A stretch of 64,000 bases of DNA from NCBI GenBank assembly GCA_000165345.1, contig CM000433.1, positions 992,001 to 1,056,000 on the forward strand, in the 5' to 3' direction. Within the stretch, counting starts at the first letter, position 1. The number at the start of each line of letters is the position of its first letter. The position numbers and the translations under genes are program-made. This document shows positions 5,988 to 59,365 of this stretch, piece after piece. The notes beneath the pieces are model-generated. The model had not been told where the DNA came from and ran no database searches. It saw nothing but the letters and a program-made list of their open reading frames with translations.

Positions 5988-8900
5988 ATGAATGTGACTT
6001 TAGGGTCCATACTGTTCCCTGAACGTCGAAAGGTAGTGGTAGATACTAGAAAGGGGCTTCATAACAAGAGAAAGAAGCAGGTAAATGCTCAGAAAAACCA
6101 GGAACAAACTTCCAAGCAATTTACTACGCGGCTTCTTTTGGATGACGAAACAATTGCTCCAAATGATTTTTTGACCCCATTTCCAAGTGATGATGTAAGA
6201 AACACAGAGCAATTTTGGGAATACTTAGAGCGTGTGTTTTATCCTGTAGATGAGAGATGGATTAGTATATTGGATCTTTCAGCAAGGCCACGGAATTTGG
6301 AGCCAAGTGAAACATGTATAGGGTTACATTTTGCTTATAGGTGGGCATTGGTAGATTTATTTGATACTAGCGAACTTTTTAAATTGGTTGGGAATAGAAA
6401 TAAGATTTTTAAGAATACCTTAGAGAAATGTAAGAATTTATCATCTGATACTAAAGCAAATAGTAATAGCGGTAGTAATAGATCAGGCGGAAAAGACCAA
6501 GTTTTGGATAAATCAGAGGATTGCCAACCAGATAATTTGGAAAGTTCAGATTTAGTAGAAGAACAGAAGGTTTTAAGTTATTTGGAGTTTCTTGATCTTC
6601 CAACACTTGAGCTTATAGGAATAGACCCAGCGGTATTGGGAGGAGTGAATACAAATGGGGACAATTTGGTAAAACAATCAGATAGTACAAATCAGAAAAA
6701 GGGGGCTTTAAATAATCCATATTTTGAGGAATGGAAATTTCTCTACAAAAGATTATGTTTTATTGAGAAGGAGGTTGACTCTATGCTTTTAAAGCTAACA
6801 GATAGTGTTAGTGAGAACATCCATAAGGACAACTCCAGAAAGTTACTTCAAAGACATCAAAAAAAGAAATGTAGACAATTCCTATTAAAAGTGATGCATT
6901 ATCATAGTATGAGACAATTTGTGGATTCTCTGGAGGAGGTTTTATACTTTGATGAGAATACTGGACAGTATTTGACAACTTGGGATGATGGTGAGGCTGT
7001 TAGAGCCGCATGGATGAGTCAGGATCAGCTTTTACAGCTTCTTTTATTTAGGCCAAACTCTACAGAAAGTAAATATTCTGTTTCAATCCCAAGTGAGTAC
7101 ATTCCTTATGCAAGATCTTTAGACACTCATTGGCTTAAATACTTATTAGACTCTGGTTTAACAATGATTAGCGATGATTCAAATAATCCTCAAGATGACG
7201 ATAGGCTTGGGGATACTTTGAATCTAGATACACCTTCTAAGCCTAAAGATGGTTGTATTGAACTTTCAAGGCATCCTCTTTGTCATTATTGTAGAAGAAG
7301 TTGCAAGAGGCTTAACTATTCTAGGTGCCCATCAAAACTTAAACCTTTAAATCTTGGAATTAATCCTTCAGGTCTTAACCAAACTACACAAGCTCAAAAT
7401 CCAAACTCTAATTCTATTTTAAATAATAATAACTCTTTAAAGCTACCAGGAACTTCAACATCTACTAGCGCATCCAATATTTACTATTCAAGATCTCTTA
7501 TTCCATGGAGAGTCCCAAAGTCTCAAAGTAATATAGAAAATAGTGACCATTCTGAGCCAATTCATATAAATAGCAATAATTATAACCAAAATCAATTCCA
7601 ATTTGGAAGTAAATCAGGAAAATCTGTTAAGCCCAACAATAGATCGTCAATTGGAGGGAATTCTTGTGGTTCTGGAGCATCTTACTTACTTAATGTGAAT
7701 AAATCTCATGTATGTAATATATGCACTGATTTTGAATCAAGTCTGAATGAATCTGTTTCTGCTCCTCAGGAAGAAATCTTAGTTAGTAGAGCCTACTCTC
7801 CCAATAATTGTTGGAGAATGTACTGTTCAGAATGCATTATGCATAATTTTTCCTCAATAATTAAGCAAAAGTATTCAAATGGAGTGGTTTTGAGGTATTA
7901 TTGCCCTTTTTGTAATGGTGCTTGTAATTGTGAGAGGTGCCTCAGAAATCAACAAATTCGAAAAATTAAAAACTACTTGAAGTCACGTTTCTGTGGATAT
8001 ACATTTCAATGTTCGATATCCAGCTGTGTAATTCAAAACGAACTCAGCTGGTATGACTTTCTCAAAGATTTTGGCGGAGACTCATTATTTCCGAATATTA
8101 ATGATAATAGCACTTATAAGGAAAACAATAATTTATTAGGAAATAATGAAACGGCATTAGTGAACGATTTAGGTGAAATTGATGAATCTATGGTTAATCC
8201 CAGCAACTTAGCAGTGGTTTCTTATATTAACAATGCAAACAGGAGGCTTTCCGTCGCAGAAAACACACACCTAGGCTTTATTTGGCTTCAAGCTAATAAT
8301 ATTCCATTCCAAAAGCCTACTCCTTCCTCATCAGGAGTGAATGCAAATATCAATGACTCAAACTCCAAAAAAACAACCACACTATCCAGTGCTCTATCAG
8401 GAAGCTGTGCATCCGACCCCACTAAACTAGTATCTAAGAATAAGTCGAGAAGTAATAGGTCCTCAATTAACGGAACTCAAAAGAACAGAAGAAATTCAAA
8501 TGTCCAAAGCAACTTTGAAGATGGTGATTCTGGTCATTCAAATAATAATAAATCTCAACAACCTACACAATCTGCTCCATCTAATTCCTCCATGTTTTCA
8601 AGTATGGGCAGGCCCGCCTTTAACATTAAAGTAGGAGGCGCCCAAAATATACCGCCCTCAATTCATATACCTCGCGAAGTATTAAATGAGCCAACGCATG
8701 CATCAGGAGCTTCGGTACTTTGGAGTTTAAGGTCGATTTTAATCAATAATGTGAATAAGTACCATAAGGAATGCTTGAATAATTTAGAGCGTTGGGAGAG
8801 TATCCAGGAATTATATAATAGGAAGAGGGTAGAACTGGAGAGTTACTTTGAGGAGCAGCTTTCGAAGCTAAACTTAATGGACGACTGGATTCGTTCAATA

Positions 8901-10082
8901 TCATTCACAGAAACTAATAAGAGGTTTATAATGAGGAAGATGCCATTATTGTGTTGGGCTGCAGACATCCCATCCGCAAAAGCTTTTAATTTTGACGACT
9001 ACCCTCAGTTGTTGCCAAACAATAACGTTGTGGAGATGATTGAACATATTCAGAATTTTGTAAACAATGGTATCATTTCGGAAGATCTACCAACTCATCA
9101 AATTTTGGGTCTTAGTGAGATTAGTGAAGGTGATGGGATTATTGGAGTATCACAAAAAACTACTCCAAGTCTTAAACTAATTGACAAGTTACCAGGAATG
9201 GTTACTAAAAACTCTCCTAGTTCAGTTATGGAGTTTCTAATGAATTCAATCTCTGAAATACAAAATATTGTAGTAAAGACAAATCATAACACTTCCAAAG
9301 ATGAGTCATCAAAGGCAAATAAGATCCAAAGAAGCTCAAAAAAAGACAAATCTAACTCTAAAAATTCTGTTCAAAATAAGCTTCCGAACTGTGATGTTGT
9401 AAACCCAGATGAAGTAAAGATTTCAAATTGTAATAATGATTTGATTTCCTCCTCCTCTTCTATTGCTGAGGCTGATGGAAATCATTTTTACAGTAACTCA
9501 CCTATTAATGCTGAATTTTTATCTAAAAACCACGGTATGCTTGAAACAGCCACTTCCACTGGTCAAAACGATCCTTCTTTAATTACCAGGTCATCAGTTG
9601 GAGATGGGATCCAAAACCCTGATAGTAGTCACTTGCCTAACTTCAGCCTTGTTGAATGTCAAAAATCCTCTAATAATAATCCCTTTTTCCATGGGGGTAG
9701 CAACTCATATATGTTAAATGAAGGCTCTATCGATCCATTCCAGTCTTATTCTAGTAAGACTATCCCAAGCCAGGATCCTGGAGCTGTTGATGGTGCCCAA
9801 AATAAATCTAGGAAAAGAAAGTCCTCTTTGGAACTAAATTCTGTAGAAATATTAACTCCTGAACGCAAAAGGGAGCTTGCCTTGAAAAGAAAACGCGACA
9901 GGGAAACTATCCGAAGAGCAATGAAAAAAAACAGTCATCTTTCCTCATCAAGTCCCACTTCTCCTAATGCTATTGGAGCAATGGGTTTCAATGGCATGGA
10001 GGAAATTAATAGTTTGAATGGTGACGGAACAACTTTTAGTATTAGCAGCAATGGCAGCAGTTATGGCTCTCCCCAACTGTAA
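5988..10082 (+). CDS. Hypothetical S/N-rich probable nuclear protein (1364 aa) with a Cys-rich zinc-finger-like module
   Basis: Long ORF. A Cys cluster at about aa 420-660 (HPLCHYCRRSCKRL...CNICTD...CSECIMHNF...YYCPFCNGACNCERCLRNQ) has a CPxCxxxCNCxxC ending. That ending is reminiscent of the CDCA7-type 4CXXC_R1 zinc finger. There is a basic KRK-rich C-terminal region. Confidence 0.65.
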   Translation: MNVTLGSILFPERRKVVVDTRKGLHNKRKKQVNAQKNQEQTSKQFTTRLLLDDETIAPNDFLTPFPSDDVRNTEQFWEYLERVFYPVDERWISILDLSARPRNLEPSETCIGLHFAYRWALVDLFDTSELFKLVGNRNKIFKNTLEKCKNLSSDTKANSNSGSNRSGGKDQVLDKSEDCQPDNLESSDLVEEQKVLSYLEFLDLPTLELIGIDPAVLGGVNTNGDNLVKQSDSTNQKKGALNNPYFEEWKFLYKRLCFIEKEVDSMLLKLTDSVSENIHKDNSRKLLQRHQKKKCRQFLLKVMHYHSMRQFVDSLEEVLYFDENTGQYLTTWDDGEAVRAAWMSQDQLLQLLLFRPNSTESKYSVSIPSEYIPYARSLDTHWLKYLLDSGLTMISDDSNNPQDDDRLGDTLNLDTPSKPKDGCIELSRHPLCHYCRRSCKRLNYSRCPSKLKPLNLGINPSGLNQTTQAQNPNSNSILNNNNSLKLPGTSTSTSASNIYYSRSLIPWRVPKSQSNIENSDHSEPIHINSNNYNQNQFQFGSKSGKSVKPNNRSSIGGNSCGSGASYLLNVNKSHVCNICTDFESSLNESVSAPQEEILVSRAYSPNNCWRMYCSECIMHNFSSIIKQKYSNGVVLRYYCPFCNGACNCERCLRNQQIRKIKNYLKSRFCGYTFQCSISSCVIQNELSWYDFLKDFGGDSLFPNINDNSTYKENNNLLGNNETALVNDLGEIDESMVNPSNLAVVSYINNANRRLSVAENTHLGFIWLQANNIPFQKPTPSSSGVNANINDSNSKKTTTLSSALSGSCASDPTKLVSKNKSRSNRSSINGTQKNRRNSNVQSNFEDGDSGHSNNNKSQQPTQSAPSNSSMFSSMGRPAFNIKVGGAQNIPPSIHIPREVLNEPTHASGASVLWSLRSILINNVNKYHKECLNNLERWESIQELYNRKRVELESYFEEQLSKLNLMDDWIRSISFTETNKRFIMRKMPLLCWAADIPSAKAFNFDDYPQLLPNNNVVEMIEHIQNFVNNGIISEDLPTHQILGLSEISEGDGIIGVSQKTTPSLKLIDKLPGMVTKNSPSSVMEFLMNSISEIQNIVVKTNHNTSKDESSKANKIQRSSKKDKSNSKNSVQNKLPNCDVVNPDEVKISNCNNDLISSSSSIAEADGNHFYSNSPINAEFLSKNHGMLETATSTGQNDPSLITRSSVGDGIQNPDSSHLPNFSLVECQKSSNNNPFFHGGSNSYMLNEGSIDPFQSYSSKTIPSQDPGAVDGAQNKSRKRKSSLELNSVEILTPERKRELALKRKRDRETIRRAMKKNSHLSSSSPTSPNAIGAMGFNGMEEINSLNGDGTTFSISSNGSSYGSPQL

Positions 10083-23519: not shown

Positions 23520-26500
23520 TTACCTTGTTTCATTAAAAGTTGCATTCTTTAAAATAGATTGTAGTTTCTGAGTTTGTATAGGTTTCAAGGATTCTGATAT
23601 TAGAATATCATTTGAAAGATTATGAGAACTATTCATTGATGATGATGATGATTGGGACTCATTAAATATTTGTACATGAGAATTTTTGTTATTGTTCTGA
23701 CTACTCTTGTAGTCATTATCATGATCACTTAAACGTGACAAATATTTATTATTGGAAGAATTGTTATTAACCAAAGTCCAGAACAAATTTGTTGAAGATG
23801 GACACATACAAGTATTTAAATTCTGAGATAAGTTACTTAAGTTCTTTTTACCAAAAGAAATAGCAACTTCATTACTAACTTGTTTTAAACAGTATAATGA
23901 TGAAAATGAACTTGTAATTTGGTTAGCTCCCAAAACTTGTTTATTTGGATCATTTGAATAGGAAATAATACTTTGAACAGTCTTTGAAATCTGTGATAAA
24001 GTAGAAACTGGATTACTTTTTTGATTATCATTATTTATTTGACTATCTTTATCAGTCTTAAGGAACATCTTTTCAATAGATTTTTGAATATCATTAATAT
24101 CAGTAGTTTCATATTCATCAGTAAATTCTTTATTAGTAGATAAAGAATCATCAATAACCATTTCAGTATTTTCTAATGATTGTTTATTAATATCTTGTAG
24201 AACTTGTGAAATAATTTCACCAGATGTATCCAAAGCTCGTATTTCTTGAATATAAATGTCATAACTGGATAACAAAAGCACTAAATATATAGAGATTTTT
24301 GTGTTTTCAACTTTAAATTGAATAATAGCATCCTTAACAGATGTTTCTTCAAATAAATCAATCTCAATATCTTCCAAACATTTAATTTGTTCAAGTTTAG
24401 ATTTGGATTTAGTACTTTTTACAAATTGATAAAGAGAAATAAGTGCTTTTTGTTTTGTATTTTTAACAATAGCAAATTGAAATGGGATTTCTTCTTTTAA
24501 GAATTGGGTAAAATGACCATAATCTTGTATATTAATAAGCTTGGAATCAGAATTAAGTTGAATATTCTCTTGATGAATTAACTCCATGGAAGTAATATTC
24601 CATATAAAAAGCTTTCCAGAAGAAGGAGAAATTCCTAATAGATAATATTCATGATTATGCATAACAATAAGCATTTGAGTAATTTGAGCTCCTTTAACAG
24701 ATAAATAACCAATATCACTTTCAAGTAGAATTGAATATTGTTTATTCCAATTATATACTATAATACCTTTAGATGAAGCCAAGAAAAGCTTATTAAATGC
24801 ATGACTAAAACAAGTAGAATAAATTTCAATTTCAGATTCTGGATGAATAATTGATGAATTGACCCATTCTTTAATTTGATTTTTATAAATCCAACATTTA
24901 ATTTCACGTTTACAAGTAATTGTTATAAAACATGTATTATTATCTTTATTAATATCATGATTATCATTTTCATATAATATATGATCAGATTCTGCTTCTT
25001 CTATTGAAACAACTTGGTCAATATGAGCAATAGGATAGTTAGATACTAATTCAAATTGTGTTTTATCTTTAGAAAGAAGAATTTTCCAAAATTTAAGATT
25101 ATATGCTCTCTTTTCATCATTAAAATGATCAAATTTTTGACTTTCAATAGTAATAGCAGATTTTGAATTCTTTGAATAATATGCATCAATTAATACAACT
25201 CTAGTAATATCATCTTGTACAAGCTTTGATGAAGAAATTCCATCTCCAACTTTTGAAACATAACTTTCTTCAGGCTTACAAAGAATACTAGAATGCCATA
25301 CATCTTTAATAAGATCATGAATATGCAACTTGAATGGATGAGAAATAATGGATACTAAAAGCTTTGTAGGATTCAAGAATTGAGATCCTAGAATTTTGAT
25401 TTTAGGATAATCCATAATACTACCTTTAATTGCATTGAATGGAGTAGAAATACCATATATAGTATTTAAGATTTTATTATGTACTAGATCAATAATTTTA
25501 ATACTGTTATCAGAGCATACAATAGCTGCTATTAATGAAGGTAAAGTATTAGAACCAGATACTTGAGTATAATCATGATTTTGAGTATCCATACAAACTT
25601 TTTCTTTTCTAAATGATGTAATATTATATATAGGAGCTCCCAATCTAGGAATAAATTGTCTAGTACCATTATTATTTGGATTTTTGTAATGATTTCTGGT
25701 ATGAATCAGATAAGAATCTGAAGAGAAAGTTTGCCTCCATAATACTAGAACAGCTTCTTCTCCACCTGATAATATAGTATCTGTACCAGGTATAATATTT
25801 AAAGAATTTAATTCATGTGAATGCCAGTGAGATATTGATGTTTTAACATTATATTTATAGATCATTTTTTCAATATCAGAATTTTCAGAAATGGAAGGAG
25901 CATTTTTCCACATTTGTATACCTTCTTTTGATGAAGAAGGAGGAATAAACCAATAAGTTAACCTACCATAAGCATCACCAGTAGCAACAAATTGTTGATC
26001 TTCAGAAAGTGTAAGCGATAGAATATATTCGGAATGTCTAAAACGAATAATTTTATCAGGGTATTGAGTATTCCAAATAATTAAGATATTTTTCCATATA
26101 AAACAGAATAAAGACTCATCCGAAGATACTTGGAAATTTAAAGCTCCATATGAGAAGTTAATAATCTTTTTGAGAGATTTTTGAATAAATTTGGAATGAT
26201 TAGATTTTTGATTAACAGAAGTATTAAATTTTGAAATTATATCAGAAATGGGAATTTTATATAAGGAAACATTAGTATCAATCAAAGTATCTTGATCTTT
26301 TGCTTCACTTATGATAAAATATATATTGTTTTTTGCAACTTTCAAATCAATAATACATCGACCAATTTCAATCTCTATTACAGACTTCTTTTCTTTATGA
26401 TTTAAGATATCATTTAAATGAAAAATTCGTATTAAACCACTAACAGTTGTAGTAACAATAAATTCCTCATTTTGATCAGACTTTATCACACCAAGACCTG

Positions 26501-26717
26501 TGATAATTTCTTTTGAAGCAGAAAATTGAGATTTAGACTCTCCATTTCCCAAAGTATCATATACATAAATTTCGTTATCTCTTCCTTTTGGGATTAATAA
26601 TAAATTCCCATTATTGCAAAACACTGGTGGTACTTTTAGAGAAAAGCATCCTCCTTTGTAACCTTTATTCATCTCTTCTCCTTTTCCATAAAAGACTAAT
26701 AATACCAATCTATACAA
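23520..26717 (-). CDS. WD40-repeat protein, possibly a nucleolar small-subunit-processome-type beta-propeller protein
   Basis: Multiple WD-like repeats are present (e.g. ...ATGDAYGRLTYW, ...LSGGEEAVLVLW). 1065 aa. The true start is probably the internal Met of MNKGYKGG at about 26672. Confidence 0.7.
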   Translation of the reverse strand: MYRLVLLVFYGKGEEMNKGYKGGCFSLKVPPVFCNNGNLLLIPKGRDNEIYVYDTLGNGESKSQFSASKEIITGLGVIKSDQNEEFIVTTTVSGLIRIFHLNDILNHKEKKSVIEIEIGRCIIDLKVAKNNIYFIISEAKDQDTLIDTNVSLYKIPISDIISKFNTSVNQKSNHSKFIQKSLKKIINFSYGALNFQVSSDESLFCFIWKNILIIWNTQYPDKIIRFRHSEYILSLTLSEDQQFVATGDAYGRLTYWFIPPSSSKEGIQMWKNAPSISENSDIEKMIYKYNVKTSISHWHSHELNSLNIIPGTDTILSGGEEAVLVLWRQTFSSDSYLIHTRNHYKNPNNNGTRQFIPRLGAPIYNITSFRKEKVCMDTQNHDYTQVSGSNTLPSLIAAIVCSDNSIKIIDLVHNKILNTIYGISTPFNAIKGSIMDYPKIKILGSQFLNPTKLLVSIISHPFKLHIHDLIKDVWHSSILCKPEESYVSKVGDGISSSKLVQDDITRVVLIDAYYSKNSKSAITIESQKFDHFNDEKRAYNLKFWKILLSKDKTQFELVSNYPIAHIDQVVSIEEAESDHILYENDNHDINKDNNTCFITITCKREIKCWIYKNQIKEWVNSSIIHPESEIEIYSTCFSHAFNKLFLASSKGIIVYNWNKQYSILLESDIGYLSVKGAQITQMLIVMHNHEYYLLGISPSSGKLFIWNITSMELIHQENIQLNSDSKLINIQDYGHFTQFLKEEIPFQFAIVKNTKQKALISLYQFVKSTKSKSKLEQIKCLEDIEIDLFEETSVKDAIIQFKVENTKISIYLVLLLSSYDIYIQEIRALDTSGEIISQVLQDINKQSLENTEMVIDDSLSTNKEFTDEYETTDINDIQKSIEKMFLKTDKDSQINNDNQKSNPVSTLSQISKTVQSIISYSNDPNKQVLGANQITSSFSSLYCLKQVSNEVAISFGKKNLSNLSQNLNTCMCPSSTNLFWTLVNNNSSNNKYLSRLSDHDNDYKSSQNNNKNSHVQIFNESQSSSSSMNSSHNLSNDILISESLKPIQTQKLQSILKNATFNETR

Positions 26718-26846
26718 GAGAATAGAAGAGTAATACTATCTCTATTAAGTATATATATATGTATATATATTAATGTATGTTTTCTCTTGCCTTGTTACCT
26801 TTTCTTGGTCTGTCTAACTTTGACTCCTTTTTAGGCACTTTCAAGA

Positions 26847-26877
26847 GGCGCCATAGCTGCGCCAAATTTTGCCCGCC
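26847..26877. promoter_or_regulatory. Cluster of three E2F-like motifs (GGCGCCA, TGCGCCAAA, TTTTGCCCGCC) abutting the TK stop codon, about 130-160 bp upstream of the WD40 gene start
   Basis: The motifs are seen directly. GGCGCC / TTTCCCGCC-type E2F/DP sites are a recognised over-represented upstream motif in Cryptosporidium. Confidence 0.45.
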
Positions 26878-27465
26878 TTAGAAATTGTATTCTTCACAAT
26901 TAATTATATGATGTTTTCTGCATACAGAAGTATAAATAGAATTGTCACCAATAAGAATTTGTTCGCCAGAAAAAACAGGTTCTCCATTGCTATTTAATCT
27001 GATAGTCATGGTAGCTTTTTTGCCACAGCGACAAATAGTTTTGATTTCAGTAAGTTTATCAGCCCATGCTAATAAGTATTTACTTCCTTCAAATAAATTT
27101 CCCTTAAAGTCTGTTCTCAAACCATAGCATAGTACTGGAATATTTAGCTTATCAACAACAATGCATAATTCTCTAACTTGGAATTTCGTTAGGAATTGGC
27201 TTTCATCAACTAGAACACAATCAATTTTTTCCTTATTATTTTCTTGATTAATAATATCAAGTAGTTTTAAATCAGGAGTGAATGTGTGTGCTTTTTCTGA
27301 GAGACCAATTCTAGAGCAAATTGAGCCTTCTTCAAATCGGCAATCTTTGCTAATTGTAAAGAGAATGGTTTTCATTCCTCTTTCTTGGTAGTTGAATGAG
27401 GATTGAAGAAGAACCGTTGATTTTCCAGCATTCATTGCTGAATAGTAAAAGTATAATTTTGCCAT
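26878..27465 (-). CDS. TK: Thymidine kinase (TK1/bacterial type)
   Basis: P-loop MNAGKST. Zinc-ribbon cysteines CRCGKKA...CRKHH. Compact 195 aa type-II thymidine kinase. In Cryptosporidium this enzyme is known to be of bacterial origin. Confidence 0.9.
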
Positions 27466-27694
27466 TTTATTAAAGTATTTCCAATCTTATTTGCAGTAGG
27501 TATGAGTGATATTATTGCTTTAAAGTATTTATTAGGTAAATTGTTGAATTCTTTGTGTTAGATGGTTTAAAATTTTGTTTTGAGTGATTAATAAAAATAA
27601 ATTTAATTTATTTTTACTTTATGAGTAGTTATTTAATCTCAATTTAGCCTCAAATTTATTACTTGAGAAAAGTGGTTACCTATATATAGATATT

Positions 27695-27710
27695 AAAAGG
27701 CGCCAAAAGG
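27695..27710. promoter_or_regulatory. E2F-like palindromic motif AAAAGGCGCCAAAAGG in the divergent TK / 27827-gene promoter
   Basis: It lies in the 361-bp divergent intergenic region and is consistent with cell-cycle control of TK. Confidence 0.45.
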
Positions 27711-27826
27711 GTTCATTTTCAGATACTTGAAATGTAAATTGATATTATTATATAAGAGTGGGATTTCGAGTAGAATATATGTTTTTGGTGTGATAATGCT
27801 TTTTAACTTGAGTTTGATAAGAAATT

Positions 27827-30800
27827 ATGATAAGTAGTCTTGAAAATGGGCCTACTGAGGAGGATCTTGAATTATTATTAGGTGGGTATAATAAGGAAGA
27901 GGAAATATTATTTGTTGATTTGAGGGAAGAATCAGATGAATTAGATAAAGTTTATTACCAGGAAAATTCCAATTTTTTGAATCCAGTTAGCTATATGAAA
28001 AGGATTGGCGATGAACAAAATCAAGATGCACCAGATAAATTGAAAAAGCGTAGAGTTAAGTCAAAGAAAACAAGACCAAGGAGGAAAAAAAGTAAATTGA
28101 AAGATGATTCTGATAAACTTTCAATAGACTCTGATGAATTTGTTGTACCAGATGATGAGGTGATTCCGCCTGACTGGGAGTATAACTTTGAAAAGCCAAT
28201 AGTTTGTCAAAATGTTACATTTTATAATAAAGTTGACAATATTTTAACTGAGAAGCTTGAATGTAATGATAGTAGTTTGGACGAAGATTTTTTCAATAAT
28301 TGTGAAATTAATGAAGGCGGATTTAAAGGTAGAAAACGTAAAAATGGAATGATTGGGATTGATATTGATAAAGAATATATTGATGATAAAGACAATACTG
28401 CATTAATTGTTGAAAGCCATTTACTGAAAGATGACATAGATGATGAAGACCAGGTAATTTTTGTAGATAGGAATTTGAACTCTTTTATTAAGCAGGTTGA
28501 TAAAAATAAGACCATAGATGAAGTTAGGACAAATGATTCTGAACCAGTTATTGTTGAAAGCGATGAATTCATTATAAATACAGAGATTTTCAATTATGGG
28601 ATTTTTAATATATACTTTAAAATGATGGATATTATTGAAGATTTTGAAAATTATAACAATTTTCAATGTTTTTCAGAAAGTTCATTTAAACTTGAAGGAA
28701 AAGATATTTCCACTCTTTTGATAGTATTCAAATCAATTGATATTGAATTCAGCAGTTTCAGCAATAATAGTAATAGTAGCTGTAGCAGTGGCAATATTAG
28801 TAATAATAATATTGGAAGTTTTGACTTGATTCAAAGTTATCTTGACTTATTTTACAATAATATCTTAAATTCATCAAAAGAGACTCAAAATTTTAATTCA
28901 ACATTTTTAAAGGAATTACACTTTGAAATGATTGGTTTTATTGAGTCAAAGTTTGATGAGATTGTTCAATTAAACCCATCTGAATGGAATTATAAGGTAT
29001 TGTTTTTGTTTTTAAGAATAATTGGACTAACTTTATTTGTTGAGCACTTGCTAATACATACAATAAAGATTGAAAAAACTTCAGAGTCAAAGATCTCAAA
29101 TTTAAATGAAGAATTTTCAGTTTTTTTTGTCAATGAGAATATTTTGAACAAGAATAATGTATCCAAGATTCTTAGACAAATCTTGAAAAAAATGTTGGAT
29201 CATTTATTAAATTTGACTTTAAAAGAAAACTTGAATGGTAATATAAGTAGTATTCATTGCATTTTGATTTTGACTTTATTCATTAATTTTAAAGTAAGTG
29301 GGGACTTGATTTTCACTTATATTTCAGAAAAATATATTAAAGATTTAAATATAACTTTTGATTTTTTTTTAATTTATTATTATGCAATGATTATTTATAG
29401 TAATTTTACTGATTTGAAGTTTGATATTTCCAAGTTATTTGCCAAATTTATCTTTGATTTAAAGGGCAATTCTTCAAATAAAAATGAATGTTTGAACCAT
29501 TATTACTTATTAAATGAGTATTTAAAATCAGTTAATGTATATCAACTTAATAATATAAATTGCAAGAATAAATTCGAATCTCTATTATATTGTTTAAGTG
29601 ATTCAAATTTCTTTTACAATATTAATAAAGAAAATGAAGTAAATATTTGTTTGTCATTATTTAGCATTGATAAATTAAATTCAGAAATCTTCTACTCAAA
29701 TCTTCCATTAAATAACTTGAAATTAAAAGAAATTCATCATAATATGAGGTGTTTTGATAAAAAATTGAGAAATATACTATTCTTGAAATCTGGAAAAGAT
29801 GAGGAGCATTGCAAAAATTATGAGAAAATGAAAAATAACTTGATTTTACCAATTAATTTTAAAGAAATAAATCTTCTTGAATTAACAGAAGAAATTTACT
29901 TTAATTTGTTGAACTTATTGGTAAATTTGATAAAAAATATCAATGAGTTAAATTTACTTTTAAAGTTTCTTCATATGCATTTTGATATTGGAAAAGCTTC
30001 GAATATAAGTAAAAATGATATTATAATGCATTATTTAGTATATAATACTTTATTCATAGTATTATTATTAAATTCAAATTTGTTTGAATTTGAAATTCCA
30101 ATAATAAATTTATATTATACTTATTTAGAAGAAAATGACCAGATTAATAATTTTCTTCTAACTGAAATGGTATTAGATAATGAAAACACTGAAAACAATC
30201 ATTTATCTGAGAAGATTAAATTGAATAAAAATTATAAACTGCTTATTCAAACTCTATTAGGGTCTTCCAAATTTGGTATCCAAATTGAATTAAAGTTCCA
30301 CATTGATATGCTTTATAATATTATTACATTAATAGAACCATTGGCAGAAAATAAATATATATTTGAATATTTAAAACAAATTAATAATCTCAAGTTAAAT
30401 GAACTATTTTATTATAATTCAAATAAAATTATCCCACAAAATATTCCCAATAATTATTTATTAAATTCCAACGAATTAATTTTGCACTCAAAATTAATTA
30501 GTAATTTTAATTCAAATATTTTGTTTGCACACGTAATTAATACCGGTATTGAATTATTGCCAAATGCATGCAAAATTAATGTGGACATAAAACAAAATGA
30601 ATTATTAATTAGATTGATAATATATTTTAAAATAATAATAGAGGAAAAATTGGATATTTATTTTGAATCAATCAATAAATTATCAGATGTAGAATTGGAT
30701 AAACCTTTTATTAATTTTATAGATGAGATTTTTAATTTAATAAATAATTTATCAATTTTATTGGTTTGGAATTTTTTGGAGATAAATGATACAACAGCAT

Positions 30801-31117
30801 TTGAATTTTTAATTTATTATTTTGGTTTAATTTCAGACAAATTATTTTATTATATAAAATATTATAAAAATGGTCAAAACAACAAAGGAAAGCAAATTTG
30901 TGAATTATTTATTTTTCATATGTACAGGAATTTGGGAGGTTTTATTCTAAGATTTTTCAACAAATTTAAAGAAAATATTAAGATAGAATGTGAAATTTAT
31001 TCATTTATGATTGTTTTTTATTTGTTAATGTTTAATATTAATCATTTTAATTTTAAAAGTTATTATAAAGAATATTTAAAAATTGAAAAAGAAATTTTTG
31101 AAAAAATCCAATTTTAA
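27827..31117 (+). CDS. Hypothetical large I/L/N/F-rich protein (1096 aa); N-terminal part of a possibly longer gene
   Basis: Long ORF with an acidic N-terminus and basic patch. It ends 1 bp before a run of ambiguous bases. Confidence 0.65.
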   Translation: MISSLENGPTEEDLELLLGGYNKEEEILFVDLREESDELDKVYYQENSNFLNPVSYMKRIGDEQNQDAPDKLKKRRVKSKKTRPRRKKSKLKDDSDKLSIDSDEFVVPDDEVIPPDWEYNFEKPIVCQNVTFYNKVDNILTEKLECNDSSLDEDFFNNCEINEGGFKGRKRKNGMIGIDIDKEYIDDKDNTALIVESHLLKDDIDDEDQVIFVDRNLNSFIKQVDKNKTIDEVRTNDSEPVIVESDEFIINTEIFNYGIFNIYFKMMDIIEDFENYNNFQCFSESSFKLEGKDISTLLIVFKSIDIEFSSFSNNSNSSCSSGNISNNNIGSFDLIQSYLDLFYNNILNSSKETQNFNSTFLKELHFEMIGFIESKFDEIVQLNPSEWNYKVLFLFLRIIGLTLFVEHLLIHTIKIEKTSESKISNLNEEFSVFFVNENILNKNNVSKILRQILKKMLDHLLNLTLKENLNGNISSIHCILILTLFINFKVSGDLIFTYISEKYIKDLNITFDFFLIYYYAMIIYSNFTDLKFDISKLFAKFIFDLKGNSSNKNECLNHYYLLNEYLKSVNVYQLNNINCKNKFESLLYCLSDSNFFYNINKENEVNICLSLFSIDKLNSEIFYSNLPLNNLKLKEIHHNMRCFDKKLRNILFLKSGKDEEHCKNYEKMKNNLILPINFKEINLLELTEEIYFNLLNLLVNLIKNINELNLLLKFLHMHFDIGKASNISKNDIIMHYLVYNTLFIVLLLNSNLFEFEIPIINLYYTYLEENDQINNFLLTEMVLDNENTENNHLSEKIKLNKNYKLLIQTLLGSSKFGIQIELKFHIDMLYNIITLIEPLAENKYIFEYLKQINNLKLNELFYYNSNKIIPQNIPNNYLLNSNELILHSKLISNFNSNILFAHVINTGIELLPNACKINVDIKQNELLIRLIIYFKIIIEEKLDIYFESINKLSDVELDKPFINFIDEIFNLINNLSILLVWNFLEINDTTAFEFLIYYFGLISDKLFYYIKYYKNGQNNKGKQICELFIFHMYRNLGGFILRFFNKFKENIKIECEIYSFMIVFYLLMFNINHFNFKSYYKEYLKIEKEIFEKIQF

Positions 31118-31118
31118 A

Positions 31119-31158
31119 NGGGATTNNCNANNNTNGNNTNNCAGNCANNAANAATNNA
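31119..31158. other. Low-quality segment with ambiguous bases
   Basis: Interspersed n characters between two same-strand ORFs. Confidence 0.9.
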
Positions 31159-31230
31159 AGAAACGTTATCGGAAAATTAAAAAATTTTCATTTTATTAAT
31201 TATTATATTAAAAAAAAAATTTGTAATAAC

Positions 31231-32577
31231 TTGAATTCTATTTATAAATTGGTTGGAGTCATTAGTAATGAATGGAAATCAAAAATTAACAAAATATTAG
31301 ATTATATTGAATTTATTGATTTATCTAATTTAAAGGAATCTTCGGATTCAGAATCAATCAAATTTAATATTAATGATTTAATACTAGAATTGTATTTTGA
31401 TTATTATATTTCTAATCTGGATTGTGAAATTTTACAAATTATTAATAAGAAAGTTATCAATTATTCTATTAATTTATATTCCACTAAGAATATATATGGA
31501 TTATTGATCAATTTTATTTTAAAGGGAATACATGAAAAAAATAATAATTCAAATATGGAACTTATTTTGAATTGGAATCATATTAATAACTCGATTAAAG
31601 GATATATTAATCAATTAAAAAATGACCTGTTAATAAATATTTGGATTAATTATGATTTTATACAAATGTTTATGATACCTAGTAGCTTCTCATGCAGATT
31701 TATATATATGAGAATACATTTTTGGATTAATATTCTAAGTATTCCACTTTCAAAAATGTTAATTAATTCTAATGAAGATTTTAATAATGTAAGAATTACA
31801 CTTGAATATCCAATGAAGTATTTTAAGAAGTTACTGATAATCAAAGATTTTAATATATTTAAAGAAAATATTATAAATTTCTCAATAAACTTTATTATTG
31901 ATTCTGTAAGATTAATTCAATTATCTTACTTTAAAATTATTTTAAAAATGTTTATTTCTAAAATTCAAAAAAATAATACTTTACATAATTTAGAGTTTGA
32001 AGAATTTACTAAATTTATATTCAAATTAATAACTTATATGAAACTCATTTCTAATAAAACAAAATTAGAATTGGAATCAAACCATGTAAATAATCAATTC
32101 AAAATTGATAATAACACAAAATGTGATATTATTGATATTATTTCTCTTTTAATATCTTATTTAAATCAAGTGTCCGAAGCTGTACATGATTTTTTAGTAA
32201 TCAGACAGGAATTCATTCAAAATAATAACAATGATAATAATAATAATAATGATTTTAAAATCGATGATAAACCTATTCAGCAAATTAATTATGAATTATT
32301 GAAAAAGAAAACTGAGTGGATTAATTATTTCATTTATTCCAGTAATTTAAATTATTCTGATCATTCTGAAAATATCACAAAATTTAATATACTTGAATAT
32401 ATTTTAAATCATAATAATAAATATTCTTTATCTATTGAATTTCAAAAACTTCCAAAAATTTTCCAGTATATTAAAAAGGAAACCTCCAAAATGACTATCC
32501 ACAAATTACAATTTTTCAACAATTTAACTTTTTCTGATTGTACATTTTCAAATACTAATACTATTCAATTATTTTAA
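31231..32577 (+). CDS. Hypothetical protein (448 aa); possibly the continuation of the 27827-31117 ORF across a low-quality segment
   Basis: Same composition and strand as the upstream ORF. It is separated only by N-peppered sequence at 31119-31158. The ORF is open upstream of the first Met. Confidence 0.5.
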   Translation: MNSIYKLVGVISNEWKSKINKILDYIEFIDLSNLKESSDSESIKFNINDLILELYFDYYISNLDCEILQIINKKVINYSINLYSTKNIYGLLINFILKGIHEKNNNSNMELILNWNHINNSIKGYINQLKNDLLINIWINYDFIQMFMIPSSFSCRFIYMRIHFWINILSIPLSKMLINSNEDFNNVRITLEYPMKYFKKLLIIKDFNIFKENIINFSINFIIDSVRLIQLSYFKIILKMFISKIQKNNTLHNLEFEEFTKFIFKLITYMKLISNKTKLELESNHVNNQFKIDNNTKCDIIDIISLLISYLNQVSEAVHDFLVIRQEFIQNNNNDNNNNNDFKIDDKPIQQINYELLKKKTEWINYFIYSSNLNYSDHSENITKFNILEYILNHNNKYSLSIEFQKLPKIFQYIKKETSKMTIHKLQFFNNLTFSDCTFSNTNTIQLF

Positions 32578-33380: not shown

Positions 33381-35351
33381 ATGGATTCAATTAACTTTAG
33401 AAGCATTTATATTCCATCAGCAGTAAGGTATATTATATTACTTTTATTATGGACAATATTTACAAAAAATGTTTATAGTAAAAGTAGTGAGGAAACTTTA
33501 TTGGGAAGATCGGTATTGGATTTAAATAAGAAAAATACATGTGAATACTATGGAGAGCAGGATGGTATATTTACTGATTCATTTCACTCAAGAATATGTA
33601 TAGTTCCAGAAGATGGATTACATGGAAAAAGGGAATACGAAAATCATCAAAGAAAAACATTTGGAACAATTAGACCAAATAATAAACAATTATCTAATAA
33701 TAAATTATATAGGAAAGATGATCATTTAACTTCTTCAATTGCAGATTTTGATAGTAATTCTGTGAGAATACAAAGAAAAAACGTGGATTTAGAAGCTATG
33801 TTTGGAATAGGAAAAGATAACAACAGAATGAATCTTAATAATGAAGCAGTTCAAAGTTTCTATTCAAATAATGAAACAGAAACCCAAGATAAGAATGCGA
33901 CAAACGACTATTTTTTATTTAAAGAAGGACTTTTGAAATATCAAGAGAAAAAGATATTAAGATATTATTTATATGATGTAGGAAATAAAGTCCATTCAGA
34001 TACTATAGCTTATCCAGAAAATATTATATCAGAAAACTCTGCATTTAACTATTTGGGGAATTATGCAGATGTTTATGAAATTAGTAAAGTATCAGATCCA
34101 CCAGTAATTTCATGGCCAAATAATCACATAGTTTTTGTACATTCTCAAGTAAAATCTGATGGTACATTTAGATTTCAAGTATATACTAGCTCAGGAGAGG
34201 TAGGATTTTATTTTGAAGTAACTGGTAATAGTTATAAAACAGGTTGTGGTAGTTATTCTAGAAGTGATAACAGCAAATTTACTCACTCAGCAAATTCTTT
34301 AATTCAAGTACAATTAGTAAGAAGAAAGTTTGGATTTAATGTATTTGTTGATGGTACTAGAAGAACAAAATTAGATATTATTGATTGTATTGCAAGTGTT
34401 CCAACTAAAGTTCAAATAACTAGTGGATCAGGATCACAAATTTATCCAAAAGTAGAAGATTGCCAAATCTCACAGTGGACAGATTGGTCAACTTGTTCAA
34501 AAACTTGCTCAACTGGTTCAAAAGCTAGATACCGTTCAGTAATTATGCCAAGTATGAATGGTGGTTTACCATGTCCTAAATTACTTGATTCAAGTCCTTG
34601 TAATGCTGATATTTCATGCTCACCATGCCAATATTCGGAATGGACAATGTGGGGTGAGTGCTCAGCTACTTGTGGATCAGGATCAACAACCAGAACAAGA
34701 AAGTTATTAAGTGCAGCATATTTTATTGAAAGCTGTATTGATACATTCCAATTAAAATCTTGCCATGGTGTTTCTTGCGCTAGTGATTGTATTGTAACAG
34801 AATGGTCAGATTGGAGCGAATGTAGTACAACTTGTGGTGTTGGAAGTCAAATTTCCACAAGATCCATAGTTGTTCCAGAACAAAATGGTGGAAAATGTGA
34901 TCATGATCTTAACAAAGTCCAAGAATGTAATGTTTCTGTTTGCTCCAAGTCTTGTGATCCTTCTCCATGCTTAAATGGCGGTATTTGTAGTGAATTACCA
35001 AAGTCAAACTTCGCTTGTACATGCCCGCCATTTTACGGAGGAGAAACTTGTGATCAATTTGAATTTCCTTGGTGGTTTTATAATATTATAATTGTTTTAG
35101 CTGTTTTGGCTGTTGGGATATTTTATAAGTCTCAAATTTCAAATATAGTTACTCCAAATACAATGGATCCTTCATATGCAGGAGATGGGGATTATGCCTT
35201 CAGTCAAGGCCCTGCTCCCCCAGATCCAGTACAAGCAGCAAATGGACAACCTCAATACTACCCAAATGCGTATAATTACAACTATGGGTATTATGACAAT
35301 TCTAATGAGGGATATTTGGTAAATAATGATGAAGGAAATTGGATGTACTAG
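33381..35351 (+). CDS. Thrombospondin type-1 repeat / EGF-domain transmembrane adhesin, TRAP-like micronemal protein
   Basis: N-terminal signal peptide. Three TSP1 repeats (WTDWSTCSKTCSTGS, WTMWGECSATCGSGS, WSDWSECSTTCGVGS). EGF-like CDPSPCLNGGICS...CTCPPFYGGETC. A transmembrane helix IIIVLAVLAVGIFY. Acidic cytoplasmic tail ending ...DEGNWMY, with a sub-terminal Trp as in TRAP-family adhesins. Confidence 0.85.
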   Translation: MDSINFRSIYIPSAVRYIILLLLWTIFTKNVYSKSSEETLLGRSVLDLNKKNTCEYYGEQDGIFTDSFHSRICIVPEDGLHGKREYENHQRKTFGTIRPNNKQLSNNKLYRKDDHLTSSIADFDSNSVRIQRKNVDLEAMFGIGKDNNRMNLNNEAVQSFYSNNETETQDKNATNDYFLFKEGLLKYQEKKILRYYLYDVGNKVHSDTIAYPENIISENSAFNYLGNYADVYEISKVSDPPVISWPNNHIVFVHSQVKSDGTFRFQVYTSSGEVGFYFEVTGNSYKTGCGSYSRSDNSKFTHSANSLIQVQLVRRKFGFNVFVDGTRRTKLDIIDCIASVPTKVQITSGSGSQIYPKVEDCQISQWTDWSTCSKTCSTGSKARYRSVIMPSMNGGLPCPKLLDSSPCNADISCSPCQYSEWTMWGECSATCGSGSTTRTRKLLSAAYFIESCIDTFQLKSCHGVSCASDCIVTEWSDWSECSTTCGVGSQISTRSIVVPEQNGGKCDHDLNKVQECNVSVCSKSCDPSPCLNGGICSELPKSNFACTCPPFYGGETCDQFEFPWWFYNIIIVLAVLAVGIFYKSQISNIVTPNTMDPSYAGDGDYAFSQGPAPPDPVQAANGQPQYYPNAYNYNYGYYDNSNEGYLVNNDEGNWMY

Positions 35352-50886: not shown

Positions 50887-52289
50887 GCCTCCAAGCTCCT
50901 AAGCTTTTATGAGGATCATTTTCATCATATATTAACAAATATTTGGATTCTAATGCTTGGACTGTTTTCTTATCATTCATACTTTTTTCATCACTGGTTT
51001 CCAATAACTTATTTCTAACATTGACTATATTCACCATTTCATAGCTGGCTTTATCATTCTTTATCCTATTTGGACTATTACTAGGAGATTGATGGTTATG
51101 AGGATGAGAATTACGATGATTATGGTTACGATGATGATTTCCAATAGATGATTCAGAATTAAAATCTTTCAATCGTCCTTCATCAATTGAATTAAAATTA
51201 AAAGTATTAGGGAAGTACTGACCAATATAAATTCCAACCTCATTAATCTCAATAGTCTTATATAAAGCATTCGGATCATCCAATTTTTGACTTTCAGAAT
51301 TCAAAGAACTTGTATCACGATTACCTAAAGAATCTGTTGTTACCACAAAACCTGACTTAATCATTGCTCCCATAATAATATCACTTCTGGTATTTCTTGA
51401 ATGATTTACTACAAGCTTATCATCACTTGATTGAAATCCTACCATACATATATGAATATCTTGAATCTCTAATTGAACATTTGCAACAATCTTCTTAATT
51501 ATTCTCCATAGTAAATTAGTTCCATTTGCTGAATTATTTGCATCATCCGACCCTCCAATTGATTTTGAATCTTTAACACCATTCAAATCCTTTCTTTCGT
51601 CTTTTGATAAATGGCCCACACTTTCTGGAACTTCATTCGGATTATTACTCGAATTAGATAACTCTCCATTCAAAAAACGCTCATTTAAACGCTTTTCTTT
51701 AAATTCTATCAACTTTTCTTTTGCTTCTCTAAGCTCTTTTCTCAAAGTATCTTCATCCACATTTCCATAATCTTTTGGTCTTACTACAACATGTAATTCT
51801 TTGAGTTTTATTACTAAAGGTTTATAACCTAAAGAAGTCCATGGTATTGTAATAGAAACATGACCAATTTGACCAGAAACTATTGATAATGGTAAATGTA
51901 GAATATCACCAAGATTCTCTTTCAGCTTCAAATTCTCTAATACTAAATTTCCTGATAATACTCCAAGCCTTAAGTTTTCACGGCTTAAGTTGTACACATA
52001 TGGCTCCAAATACCTTCCAAGTAATCTTTGTAATATAGTTTCCAACATTTCTCAACTTATTCTTTAAATAAAGTTTACATATGTTTCTAAATAATTTAAC
52101 CACAGATTAATATTATATTTTTCTTTTTATGCCACCATATCATTTACAATATTACTTCTTTATGTATTAAAATAACAAAAGAAAGCCAATTTTTTATTTA
52201 TTTTCTTTCTTCCTTCTACAAGACAATATTTTAAATTGTACTGAAATTCACTGGCCTTAAAATTAATCTTTTTGATGATTTATTAAACT

Positions 52290-52312
52290 GGGTACCGAGT
52301 CGATATTCGAAT
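52290..52312. other. Probable residual cloning-vector polylinker at a contig end
   Basis: gggtaccgagtcgatattcgaat resembles the pUC-type MCS GGGTACCGAGCTCGAATTC (the second half of the SmaI site, then KpnI-SacI-EcoRI) with a few base-call errors. It lies directly before the N gap. Confidence 0.45.
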
Positions 52313-52412
52313 NNNNNNNNNNNNNNNNNNNNNNNNNNNNNNNNNNNNNNNNNNNNNNNNNNNNNNNNNNNNNNNNNNNNNNNNNNNNNNNNNNNNNNNN
52401 NNNNNNNNNNNN
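52313..52412. other. Scaffold gap, exactly 100 N
   Basis: Run of 100 n characters. The composition differs on each side. Confidence 0.95.
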
Positions 52413-53206
52413 TTTAAAATCAATTAATTAATTCTTTTAATAAATAAATAGATAAATTTCTTATATAATTTTGATTTTAAAGAAAAAAAAAAAAAAAATA
52501 TAAGAATAACTATTAGATAATACATTGATAATAGGATTAATAGTTATAGCATTATTATTAATAATAGGATTTAATAATGTTAATAATTATAATGATAATA
52601 GAAATAATTACAGGTTAATACTAATATTAAAAATAATAATAACAATAATAATAGTAAATAGAAAAATAAAAGTACAAATATTAATTATTTCTTAAACATA
52701 ATAATTATTAGTACTATTTTAAACAACTAAATAATTAATTAGTTTTATCACTTTTAAAAACAAAATTTTTCTTTTTTTACAAATCAAAAAACCCACATTC
52801 AATTTTCAAATAGTTGTCATTAAAAACTTATTTAAAAAATTCAACCAATTAAAAACACCACCAACTCCAATATTAATAAATATATTAAGTAATTATATTA
52901 TCATAAATTTACTTAATTTATTTCATTAATAAAAATCCCATTTAAATTTTCTTTTATAAGATAATCGTAATAAAAATCATCATCATTATTATCATCTCAA
53001 ACTTAAGTATTTAAATAAAATAAACTCTGATAAATCTTCTTTCAAGCAATTATTATTTTATACTCAAGTTTTTTTTTTCATTTATTCAAACAAAATCCTC
53101 ATACACATTTTTTTCTCATGCAATTATTATTTCCTACTTAAATTGATTAAAGAAATTTAAACAAACCCACATAAATCTATTCTTCTCTTAAAAAAGAATT
53201 ATATCA

Positions 53207-53515
53207 TCATCTTAATAATTTTACTTCTTCATTTGATTTATTTCGATAATTTTCTTCATTACTTATACTATTATTTATATCTATACGTAATTTTTCTAAT
53301 AAATCATTTATTAATACTTTCATACCAAATAAATTTTTTGTTAAATATTCAATACCATTTATATTTAATAAATATTTCTCAACATTATATTGATATGATA
53401 TTTTTTCACATTCATAATCTATTATTACATTATTAATTATTGTACATTTACAATTTTTTTTGCAATGGTACACCAATATAATAATGATTATTATTAATAT
53501 CATCATTATATTCAA
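53207..53515 (-). CDS. Possible 3' extension of the 53448-54236 secreted-protein gene in an alternate frame, or a spurious ORF
   Basis: It overlaps the end of the upstream ORF by about 68 bp. A(8)/T(8) runs lie at the junction. Confidence 0.2.
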   Translation of the reverse strand: MNIMMILIIIIIILVYHCKKNCKCTIINNVIIDYECEKISYQYNVEKYLLNINGIEYLTKNLFGMKVLINDLLEKLRIDINNSISNEENYRNKSNEEVKLLR

Positions 53516-54236
53516 ATATTACAAAAAAAATTTTATCTTTATGTAAATCATTTTTATAGCTGGTCAATTTTTCTTCATTATTATAAAATTCTTTAAATAT
53601 TATTTTATTATTTAAATTATCAATATATTCTGGTTCTTGTTCTTTTACAAAATTTATTATATCTTCTGATTTTATTATTTTTTCATCAAAATCTCTTAAA
53701 TATTTTGGTAATTCTGGTATTTCTTTTAATTGATAAGAATAATATTTTGCAACTAGTGAAAAAGCTGGAATAGAAGGACGATCTACATCATTAGTTATTG
53801 GAGTTATTCTAAACTTATTATTTTCTACATCAAGTATTAATTTTGAAGCACAAAATATCTTTCCTAGAAGAAAATTTTTATTAATATTATTATAAAATAT
53901 TATTCTTAATACATCAAAATCACTTTTTTTAATTATGAACTTGCGGAGACCAGCTTCAATATTAAATGGATGAGGGTCTGCTTTATTACAATTTAAAGTA
54001 ATATTATATTTATTTAAAAATGGAAATGTTAATAATTCATTACCTTGTGTAATTGCAACAAGGTAATTATTATTATCAGTACCATTCATAGTATTATTAT
54101 TAATATCATATGGAACAAAATGTCCTTCATAAAATGTTATATGATGACTATCAGGAGGATAAAAGATGTCAAAAAAAGTTAATCCATATGTGTATTTAAA
54201 TAATAGTAATAATATTAAATAATTAATAAAATTCAT
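53448..54236 (-). CDS. Predicted secreted hypothetical protein (262 aa)
   Basis: N-terminal signal peptide MNFINYLILLLLFKYTYGL. No known domain. It may continue into the overlapping 53207-53515 ORF through a homopolymer-associated frame change. Confidence 0.5.
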   Translation of the reverse strand: MNFINYLILLLLFKYTYGLTFFDIFYPPDSHHITFYEGHFVPYDINNNTMNGTDNNNYLVAITQGNELLTFPFLNKYNITLNCNKADPHPFNIEAGLRKFIIKKSDFDVLRIIFYNNINKNFLLGKIFCASKLILDVENNKFRITPITNDVDRPSIPAFSLVAKYYSYQLKEIPELPKYLRDFDEKIIKSEDIINFVKEQEPEYIDNLNNKIIFKEFYNNEEKLTSYKNDLHKDKIFFVIFEYNDDINNNHYYIGVPLQKKL

Positions 54237-54507
54237 CTTTATTTTATAATATTAATATTACTGGTAATAATTTATCTAAAATTTTTTTTTTTTTTTTTAT
54301 AATAATACAAAATAATTTATTTTTAATGTCAATTTAAGATCATTTATTTTTCTTTATAATTATTTTATGCGGTAATATTAAGACATTTTATTTATTTTAT
54401 TTTTATTAATTTTATAAGATAATGTCAAATTAAGATCTTTTTTTTTTTCTTTTTTTTTTTTTTATTTTATCTTTTCTATTTTATTATTATTATTTTTTTC
54501 TTTTAAA

Positions 54508-54561
54508 ATTAATTAATTAATTAATTAATTAATTAATTATTCTTCTTCTTCTTCTTCTTCT
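54508..54561. repeat. (AATT)n followed by (TCT)n microsatellites in the divergent promoter upstream of guaA
   Basis: aattaattaattaattaattaattaatt followed by tcttcttcttcttcttcttc. Confidence 0.9.
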
Positions 54562-54600
54562 TTATTATTATTATTATAATCATTATTTAATATATTTATT

Positions 54601-56655
<2,055 letters not shown>

Positions 56656-56665
56656 TAATACATGA

Positions 56666-58309: not shown

Positions 58310-58344
<35 letters not shown>

Positions 58345-59149: not shown

Positions 59150-59310
<161 letters not shown>

Positions 59311-59321
59311 TAGTAATAATG

Positions 59322-59365
<44 letters not shown>

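Follow-up and report, generated by a model that had tools for sequence, protein, structure and literature searches.

How did a thymidine kinase (TK) of bacterial type come to reside in a Cryptosporidium genome, and to which genes do the E2F-like GC motifs on both sides of it belong? We examined these questions in a 64,000-nt stretch of DNA, referred to here as the window, and in the corresponding loci of related species. Our reading, to which we assign a probability of about 85%, is that a bacterial-derived TK lies between two ordinary Cryptosporidium promoters. The locus is real, and its main features have all been described before: that TK came from bacteria, contributes to antifolate resistance and is dispensable is textbook Cryptosporidium biology, and no promoter motif of the genus is better known than the E2F-like one. 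What is added here is modest and comparative, in that the module abutting the TK stop codon appears to be that of the adjacent WD40 gene, and the sole conserved upstream core adjoins the other neighbor.

The TK gene occupies positions 26878-27465 on the minus strand as an ATG-to-TAA open reading frame (ORF) of 195 codons, followed by a TAA stop at 26878-26880. Residues 2-186 matched the Pfam thymidine kinase profile PF00265 from end to end (positions 1-176 of 176; E = 1.8e-54), and the score of 184.7 bits, against a curated cut-off of 20.6, places the protein within that family. A P-loop of the form GxxxxGK[ST] is present as AMNAGKST (residues 9-16) and the acidic DE..QF motif as VDESQF (residues 85-90); both are identical in an aligned enterobacterial TK. 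The Cys/His pairs of a predicted zinc site in the lasso domain are found at CRCG (145-148) and CRKHH (182-186), whose counterparts in the enterobacterial enzyme are CFCG and CRKHY and which also align with the C..C and C of Ureaplasma and primate TKs. The first-pass annotation had described a compact TK1-type enzyme of bacterial type, a description borne out by the full-length PF00265 match and by 60-65% identity to gamma-proteobacterial TKs. Two further candidates were discarded. A Pfam AAA_22 match on TK (17.5 bits, below the cut-off of 27) reflects P-loop similarity only, and a 61-aa plus-strand ORF with a TTG start within TK (26942-27127) was dismissed as a chance antisense ORF.

The TK protein is encoded exactly on NCBI CP044418.1 (1.086 Mb, assembly GCA_015245375.1), and around TK the window was 100% identical to that record across the 6,588 bp compared. 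Judged by sequence, the ORF is C. parvum cgd5_4440 of the literature, with the same protein, flanks that are 100% identical, and no differences. That gene has been listed with a 362-bp upstream region (Mullapudi 2007, PMC1779779), and the corresponding spacer in the window is 361 bp. These matches suggest that the window represents chromosome 5 of C. parvum type. TK appears in Table 2 of PMC545779 with the evidence type "Assay", and its reaction in the literature converts salvaged thymidine to dTMP, a route that bypasses DHFR-TS. Parasites in which TK has been knocked out survive, although they are sensitive to DHFR inhibitors (PMC4777385). In Mullapudi 2007, TK was placed among other kinases on the basis of an AT-rich motif and of late expression (48-72 h) rather than of an E2F motif.

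Homologs of TK were sought among 5.8 billion proteins. Eight Cryptosporidium orthologs, at 69-83% identity, ranked ahead of all other matches. The next-best matches were all bacterial where named, and the named ones were gamma-proteobacterial TKs with 60-65% identity over 95-98% of the query length (~258-270 bits), from Tatumella, Serratia, Providencia, Leclercia, Vibrio, Photobacterium, Pseudoalteromonas and the Pasteurellaceae. Among the eukaryote-labeled close matches, only Cryptosporidium was seen. Aligned with the enterobacterial TK, the Cryptosporidium protein was 63% identical over 186 residues without a gap, with the P-loop, DESQF and Cys/His motifs conserved; aligned with Pan TK1, it was 24% identical with 16 gap positions. 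The best solved-structure matches were likewise bacterial (E ~1e-13), and human TK1 structures scored 21-22 bits (E ~1e-3 to 2e-3).

A neighbor-joining (NJ) tree of 130 sequences placed these relationships in context. It contained nine Cryptosporidium TKs, nine named gamma-proteobacterial TKs, three vertebrate TK1 sequences, an Anaeramoeba TK, and 108 representatives taken from a filter-free HMMER search of 1.84 billion cluster representatives. The Cryptosporidium TKs were monophyletic in 100 of 100 bootstraps, as were the eukaryotic TK1 sequences (vertebrates plus Anaeramoeba). The Cryptosporidium TKs nested among gamma-type TKs and joined the sampled eukaryotic TK1 in 0 of 100 bootstraps. 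It had been claimed beforehand that TK was acquired horizontally, and that this would fall if TK grouped with eukaryotic TK1; with no bootstrap returning that grouping, the claim of a horizontal origin was not refuted, and the nesting among gamma-type TKs agrees with published ancestry. In this distance-based tree the sister group of the Cryptosporidium clade reached at best 10/100 support, and most of the close representatives are metagenome proteins; the ten nearest outside Cryptosporidium are metagenome proteins or carry the bare label "thymidine kinase". This places the donor lineage no more precisely than as gamma-proteobacterial-like.

In the main NJ tree, the TK from outside the genus that came closest to the Cryptosporidium clade was P0255 (bootstrap only 8/100), which sits on a TARA Oceans scaffold from a marine metagenome (L012, TK at 1193-1831). 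The genes on that scaffold are small and tightly packed, and include a 2OG-Fe(II) oxygenase and SIR2; it looks phage-like rather than chromosomal.

Taken at the level of protein sequence, the evidence supports horizontal acquisition of TK from a proteobacterium, with a donor gene most like present-day gamma-proteobacterial tdk. The ancestry of TK has been published as alpha/gamma-proteobacterial (PMC545779, PMC4777385) and its horizontal origin in 2004 (Striepen et al. 2004, as cited in PMC545779 and PMC4777385); per PMC545779, TK is absent from other apicomplexans. The GC content over TK equals that of its surroundings.

The likeness to gamma-proteobacterial Tdk (E. coli-type, PF00265) extends to length (~200 aa, compared with 195 aa here) as well as to the gapless 63% identity and the shared P-loop, DE(S)QF and zinc-site motifs. 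Unlike that enzyme's gene, however, Cryptosporidium TK resides in a eukaryotic nucleus, has AT-rich codon usage and eukaryotic-type flanking promoters, and lacks an operon context. With the eukaryotic cytosolic TK1 of humans it has in common the PF00265 fold family and the reaction. Human TK1 is an E2F-regulated S-phase gene in animals, and an E2F-type motif in the upstream spacer is a further likeness between the two. Against this, Cryptosporidium TK is 24% identical with gaps, lacks the C-terminal regulatory extension and never groups with TK1 in the tree; moreover, the E2F-like site at Cryptosporidium TK is positioned relative to the neighboring gene, so a TK-specific link to the cell cycle cannot be claimed.

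The flanking motifs belong to a class that is strongly over-represented in the window. Compared with dinucleotide-preserving shuffles of the 64-kb sequence, SGCGCS was found nine times (0.19 expected), GGCGGG eight times (0.31 expected) and TTTSSCGC six times (0.42 expected), an enrichment of roughly 14- to 47-fold. Once matches were merged, 15 of 18 sites lay outside long ORFs, that is, in 22% of the window (binomial P = 6e-8), a bias that held even though intergenic DNA is 18% GC and coding DNA 27%. Most sites were located 42-250 bp upstream of an ATG. All four named cores at the TK locus were found and match the published Cryptosporidium E2F-like motifs 3 (DTTGSCGCCH, core [C/G]GCGC[G/C]) and 4 (TTTGGCGGGAAV, core GGCGGG) (Oberstaller 2013, PMC3734150), in keeping with the first-pass annotation, which had called them E2F-like. 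The E2F consensus, TTTSSCGC or [A/T][C/G]GCGC[G/C][A/T], is matched by TGGCGCCT, which holds the core at 26847-26852, by TTTGGCGC (26859-26866, minus strand) and by AGGCGCCA, which holds the core at 27699-27704; the GGCGGG core at 26872-26877 also conforms. As expected of E2F-type elements, the sites were non-random in location (15 of 18 intergenic) and conserved, with positions kept across ten other Cryptosporidium TK loci.

No upstream motifs are more over-represented in C. parvum than the E2F-like ones, which precede 161 of 200 expression clusters (PMC4117751). In ATAC-seq data from this species, the E2F motif predominates among the peaks, over half of which were annotated as bidirectional promoters (10.1101/2025.01.17.633476). 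Binding of such motifs by E2F/DP is without experimental validation in any Cryptosporidium species (2025 review, PMC12246861). The cores described here resemble those published: they are intergenic, most lie no more than ~250 bp from an ATG, and many occupy divergent spacers. They do not differ in kind; what distinguishes the TK locus is that three cores fall within 31 bp, the densest cluster of the window, and abut a stop codon. Since the motif is near-ubiquitous, its presence says little about TK-specific or cell-cycle regulation.

That dense cluster (26847-26877; minus-strand reading GGCGGGCAAAATTTGGCGCAGCTATGGCGCC) comprises GGCGCC at 26847-26852, TTTGGCGC at 26859-26866 on the minus strand, and GGCGGG at 26872-26877, also on the minus strand. 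It lies between TK and the WD40 gene (23520-26672, minus strand), which encodes a 1050-aa WD40-repeat protein with a weak WDR75-like match. TK is thus head-to-tail with this gene and, on its other side, diverges from a plus-strand gene beginning at 27827, the tight arrangement noted beforehand. The WD40 gene starts at ATG 26672, which is the first ATG and also the annotated start in the public record, and its orthologs are named WD40-repeat proteins. Measured from this codon, the spacer is 205 bp, and the cluster lies 175-205 bp upstream of the ATG and at +1 to +31 of the TK 3' flank. Two details given previously need correction. The cluster was said to overlap the TK 3' end and stop codon; it ends at 26877 and the stop is at 26878-26880, so the two only abut. 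The cluster was also placed 130-160 bp from the next gene, a distance measured to a TTG at 26717 rather than to the ATG. The cluster presumably lies within the TK 3' UTR.

We compared the locus with orthologous TK loci from ten other Cryptosporidium sources, with CP044418.1 as the parvum reference; the sources included C. meleagridis, chipmunk genotype I, C. ubiquitum, C. canis, C. felis, C. bovis, C. ryanae and the assemblies L011 and L013. The gene order (large divergent gene, TK, WD40 gene) was the same in all loci for which flanks were recovered. GC cores fell within about +1 to +40 of the TK stop at all eleven TK-bearing loci examined, the window plus ten others. In six of the seven other intestinal-clade loci (C. 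meleagridis, chipmunk genotype I, C. ubiquitum, C. canis, C. felis and L013) there were two to three cores, at approximately +1/+4, +12 to +20, and +26 to +29; L011 had only the +26 core under the patterns used. C. bovis and C. ryanae had one or two GGCGCC cores at +26/+40 from the TK stop. Across species the cores alternated between the GGCGCC and GGCGGG types, with positions unchanged.

Adjoining the cluster is a 69-bp conserved non-coding block (26778-26846, minus strand, AGTGCCTAAAAAGGAGTCAAAGTTAGACAGACCAAG...). Among four species the block was 88-94% identical, compared with 52-69% at the four-fold degenerate sites of TK; in comparison with C. canis, the figures were 68-73% for the block and 23-40% for TK four-fold sites. 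Set against TK coding sequence as a whole, nucleotide identity was 88-94% in the block and 77-83% in TK. At the center of the block is an imperfect palindrome, GTCA-N5-AGAC (GTCAAAGTTAGAC, 26812-26824, minus strand), which was invariant in eight aligned Cryptosporidium TK loci and was also found in L013 and C. meleagridis. This element combines the published "unknown" motifs 12 (GAGWCA) and 18 (WTAGACR) (PMC3734150). It had a single match in the whole 64-kb window, and GAGTCA..TAGAC, sought across the window as a possible recurring promoter motif, occurred nowhere but at the TK locus. An Rfam scan of 26300-28100 on both strands (E <= 1) returned no RNA family; the block is therefore not a known ncRNA. 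We regard the block as the probable core promoter, or 5' leader, of the WD40 gene.

The C. muris genome provided a locus in which the WD40 gene occurs without TK. The C. muris WD40 ortholog, CMU_037670, has the same downstream neighbors as in the window (a Trm11-like methyltransferase, Efg1 and arginyl-tRNA synthetase), and its upstream neighbor is a divergent S-adenosylhomocysteine hydrolase (SAHH) gene; tblastn of the 13-kb C. muris locus found no TK. Upstream of the WD40 ATG, C. muris has an E2F-like half-site, TGCGCCA, at ~125 bp, and a GTCA-N5-AGAC element, GTCAAGGGAAGAC, at -87 to -75. The latter was the only match in the 13 kb, with 0.15 expected. The downstream module thus exists independently of TK. 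Because the C. muris gene keeps these elements without TK, the E2F/GTCA-N5-AGAC module appears, on comparative grounds, to be the promoter of the WD40 gene. The proposal that promoter elements of the neighbor lie within the TK 3' end accordingly survives in part: the module fits a WD40 promoter, but it occupies the 3' flank of TK and not its coding end.

As a separate observation, the synteny between C. muris (L014, DS989726.1, 2755-5000) and the window (26673-27826) breaks exactly upstream of the WD40 promoter, with the SAHH gene on the C. muris side and TK plus the large gene in the other species.

C. bovis and C. ryanae depart from this spacing. Their WD40 ATG lies 530-560 bp from the cores, which stay beside the TK stop, and we found no open frame that could serve as an upstream exon bringing the WD40 start nearer to the cluster. 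Given this distance, a promoter reading fits these two species only with a long leader or a leader intron. In the window, splice-like signals are conserved in the WD40 leader (26710-26798, minus strand): AAAG|GTAAC at ~26798, and a pyrimidine-rich tract ending in TATAG at ~26710. These signals suggest a possible 5'-UTR intron of ~89 nt, which, if present, would explain the longer spacer in C. bovis and C. ryanae. The same leader contains a six-codon upstream ORF, ATGGAAAAGGAGAAGAGATGA (26669-26689, minus strand), whose TGA overlaps the WD40 ATG (ATGA). By eye, an equivalent upstream ATG with the same overlapping TGA is present in chipmunk genotype I, C. ubiquitum, C. meleagridis and one further Cryptosporidium assembly.

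Other explanations for the cluster have to be weighed against these data. TK and the WD40 gene could be expressed as a dicistronic mRNA, with the E2F-like cluster as an internal spacer element that perhaps drives a stage-specific monocistronic transcript. C. parvum is reported to have 201 polycistronic transcripts, 160 of which carry an E2F-type motif in the inter-ORF spacer (10.1101/2025.01.17.633476), and the present pair would suit that class: the two genes are co-oriented and 205 bp apart, the cluster begins at +1 after the TK stop, and the cores of C. bovis and C. ryanae keep their distance to that stop and not to the next ATG. Nevertheless, the C. muris WD40 gene retains GTCA-N5-AGAC and an E2F-like half-site with no TK upstream, indicating that the module works without TK, and we regard a dicistron as unlikely. 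The fixed position of the cores, +1 to ~+40 from the TK stop at eleven of eleven loci, including C. bovis and C. ryanae with the next ATG more than 500 bp away, could also mean that they chiefly serve the 3' end of TK, as a termination, polyadenylation or boundary element rather than a promoter. We think this improbable. Motifs of the same types precede most gene starts in the window and flank genes on either side; the cores match a published promoter motif; and they switch between the GGCGCC and GGCGGG types, as is typical of transcription-factor sites. The persistence of the adjoining conserved element upstream of the C. muris WD40 gene, where there is no TK, further argues against a TK-specific 3'-end function.

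That the GC motifs are compositional islands without sequence-specific function, such as chance GC-rich remnants in AT-rich spacers, is a suggestion that draws on the shortness of the motif and on binding that is without demonstration in the genus (PMC12246861). It is very hard to reconcile with the ~14- to 47-fold enrichment over dinucleotide-preserving shuffles, with an intergenic bias (P = 6e-8) that runs counter to the lower GC content of intergenic DNA (18% vs 27%), or with positions that are conserved across species in which synonymous sites are largely randomized, and we give it hardly any weight.

On the other side of TK, the divergent spacer (27466-27826, 361 bp) separates it from the plus-strand neighbor. 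The spacer had been said to carry a GC motif, and a single E2F-like site, AAAAGGCGCCAAAAGG, is indeed present at 27695-27710, with a GGCGCC core at 27699-27704; on the minus strand the site reads TTTTGGCGCCT, in agreement with published motif 3 (DTTGSCGCCH). In the window the site lies at -127 from the ATG of the neighbor and at -239 from that of TK. The distance of the GC core to the neighbor ATG was -126 to -128 in four taxa and -110 in C. canis; its distance to the TK ATG ranged from -222 to -255. This site is therefore positioned relative to the other neighbor rather than to TK. It is at the center of a conserved core of ~120 bp (27667-27786, -41 to -160 from the neighbor ATG), which was 74-86% identical, compared with 42-60% across the 200 bp beside the TK ATG, roughly the level of TK synonymous sites. 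TK would have no conserved promoter to itself in the 200 bp beside its start codon. We interpret the core at 27667-27786 as probably a shared bidirectional promoter core that lies nearer the other neighbor.

The divergent neighbor itself (27827-31117, plus strand) is a large ORF with no Pfam domain and is syntenic in all TK-bearing species examined. Its gene models disagree: the CP044418.1 annotation gives 1095 aa, gene calls in the remaining named species and in a Logan assembly give 1545-1596 aa, and that of C. meleagridis gives 1108 aa. Within the plus-strand region 27827-32577, the window has the ORF at 27827-31117 followed by one at 31231-32577 in a different frame, which may reflect a frameshift, a split gene or an intron that the annotation lacks.

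These features can be assembled into a mechanism for our preferred reading, a bacterial-derived TK between two ordinary promoters. A proteobacterial TK gene would now be a fully integrated, compositionally unremarkable nuclear gene, and its TK1-fold salvage product would phosphorylate thymidine to dTMP, bypassing DHFR-TS. From +1 of the TK 3' flank, the downstream module, consisting of two to three E2F-like cores about one helical turn apart and then the GTCA-N5-AGAC block, would drive the WD40 (WDR75-like) gene, either as a promoter or as a 5' leader, and any TK 3' UTR would have to run through it. TK would most likely also be transcribed from the shared bidirectional core in the 361-bp spacer. 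We infer E2F/DP binding, the starts and ends of the transcripts, and the use of the shared core by TK. A bolder version holds that the bacterial TK was domesticated by wedging between two pre-existing E2F-type promoters and is transcribed from the bidirectional core of its neighbor. We advance this version tentatively and rather doubt it. If true, it would be a concrete case of a promoterless prokaryotic gene gaining expression in a eukaryotic nucleus, and it would have brought TK by convergence under the same transcription-factor family as animal TK1. More practically, both the 5' and 3' flanks of TK carry conserved regulatory DNA that we attribute to its neighbors, which is relevant to constructs that replace or disrupt the TK locus.

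The juxtaposition of stop codon and motif has a parallel elsewhere in the window. An E2F-like site, TTTGGCGCC (589-597), begins 3 nt past the stop of the ORF at 65-586, with the next ATG (759) 162 bp downstream; a stop codon abutted by such a site is thus not peculiar to TK in this compact genome. The only three of the 18 sites that are not intergenic are E2F-like cores inside long ORFs (8613-8642 and 35024-35029): CCCGCC and GGCGCC, 19 bp apart, within the ORF at 5988-10082, and CCCGCC within the ORF at 33381-35351. They may act as internal promoters, or may have arisen by chance in coding DNA, which is richer in GC. The final 12 kb (52001-64000) are extremely AT-rich, with a GC content of 11-20% per 2 kb, compared with 25-37% elsewhere, and contain few long ORFs.
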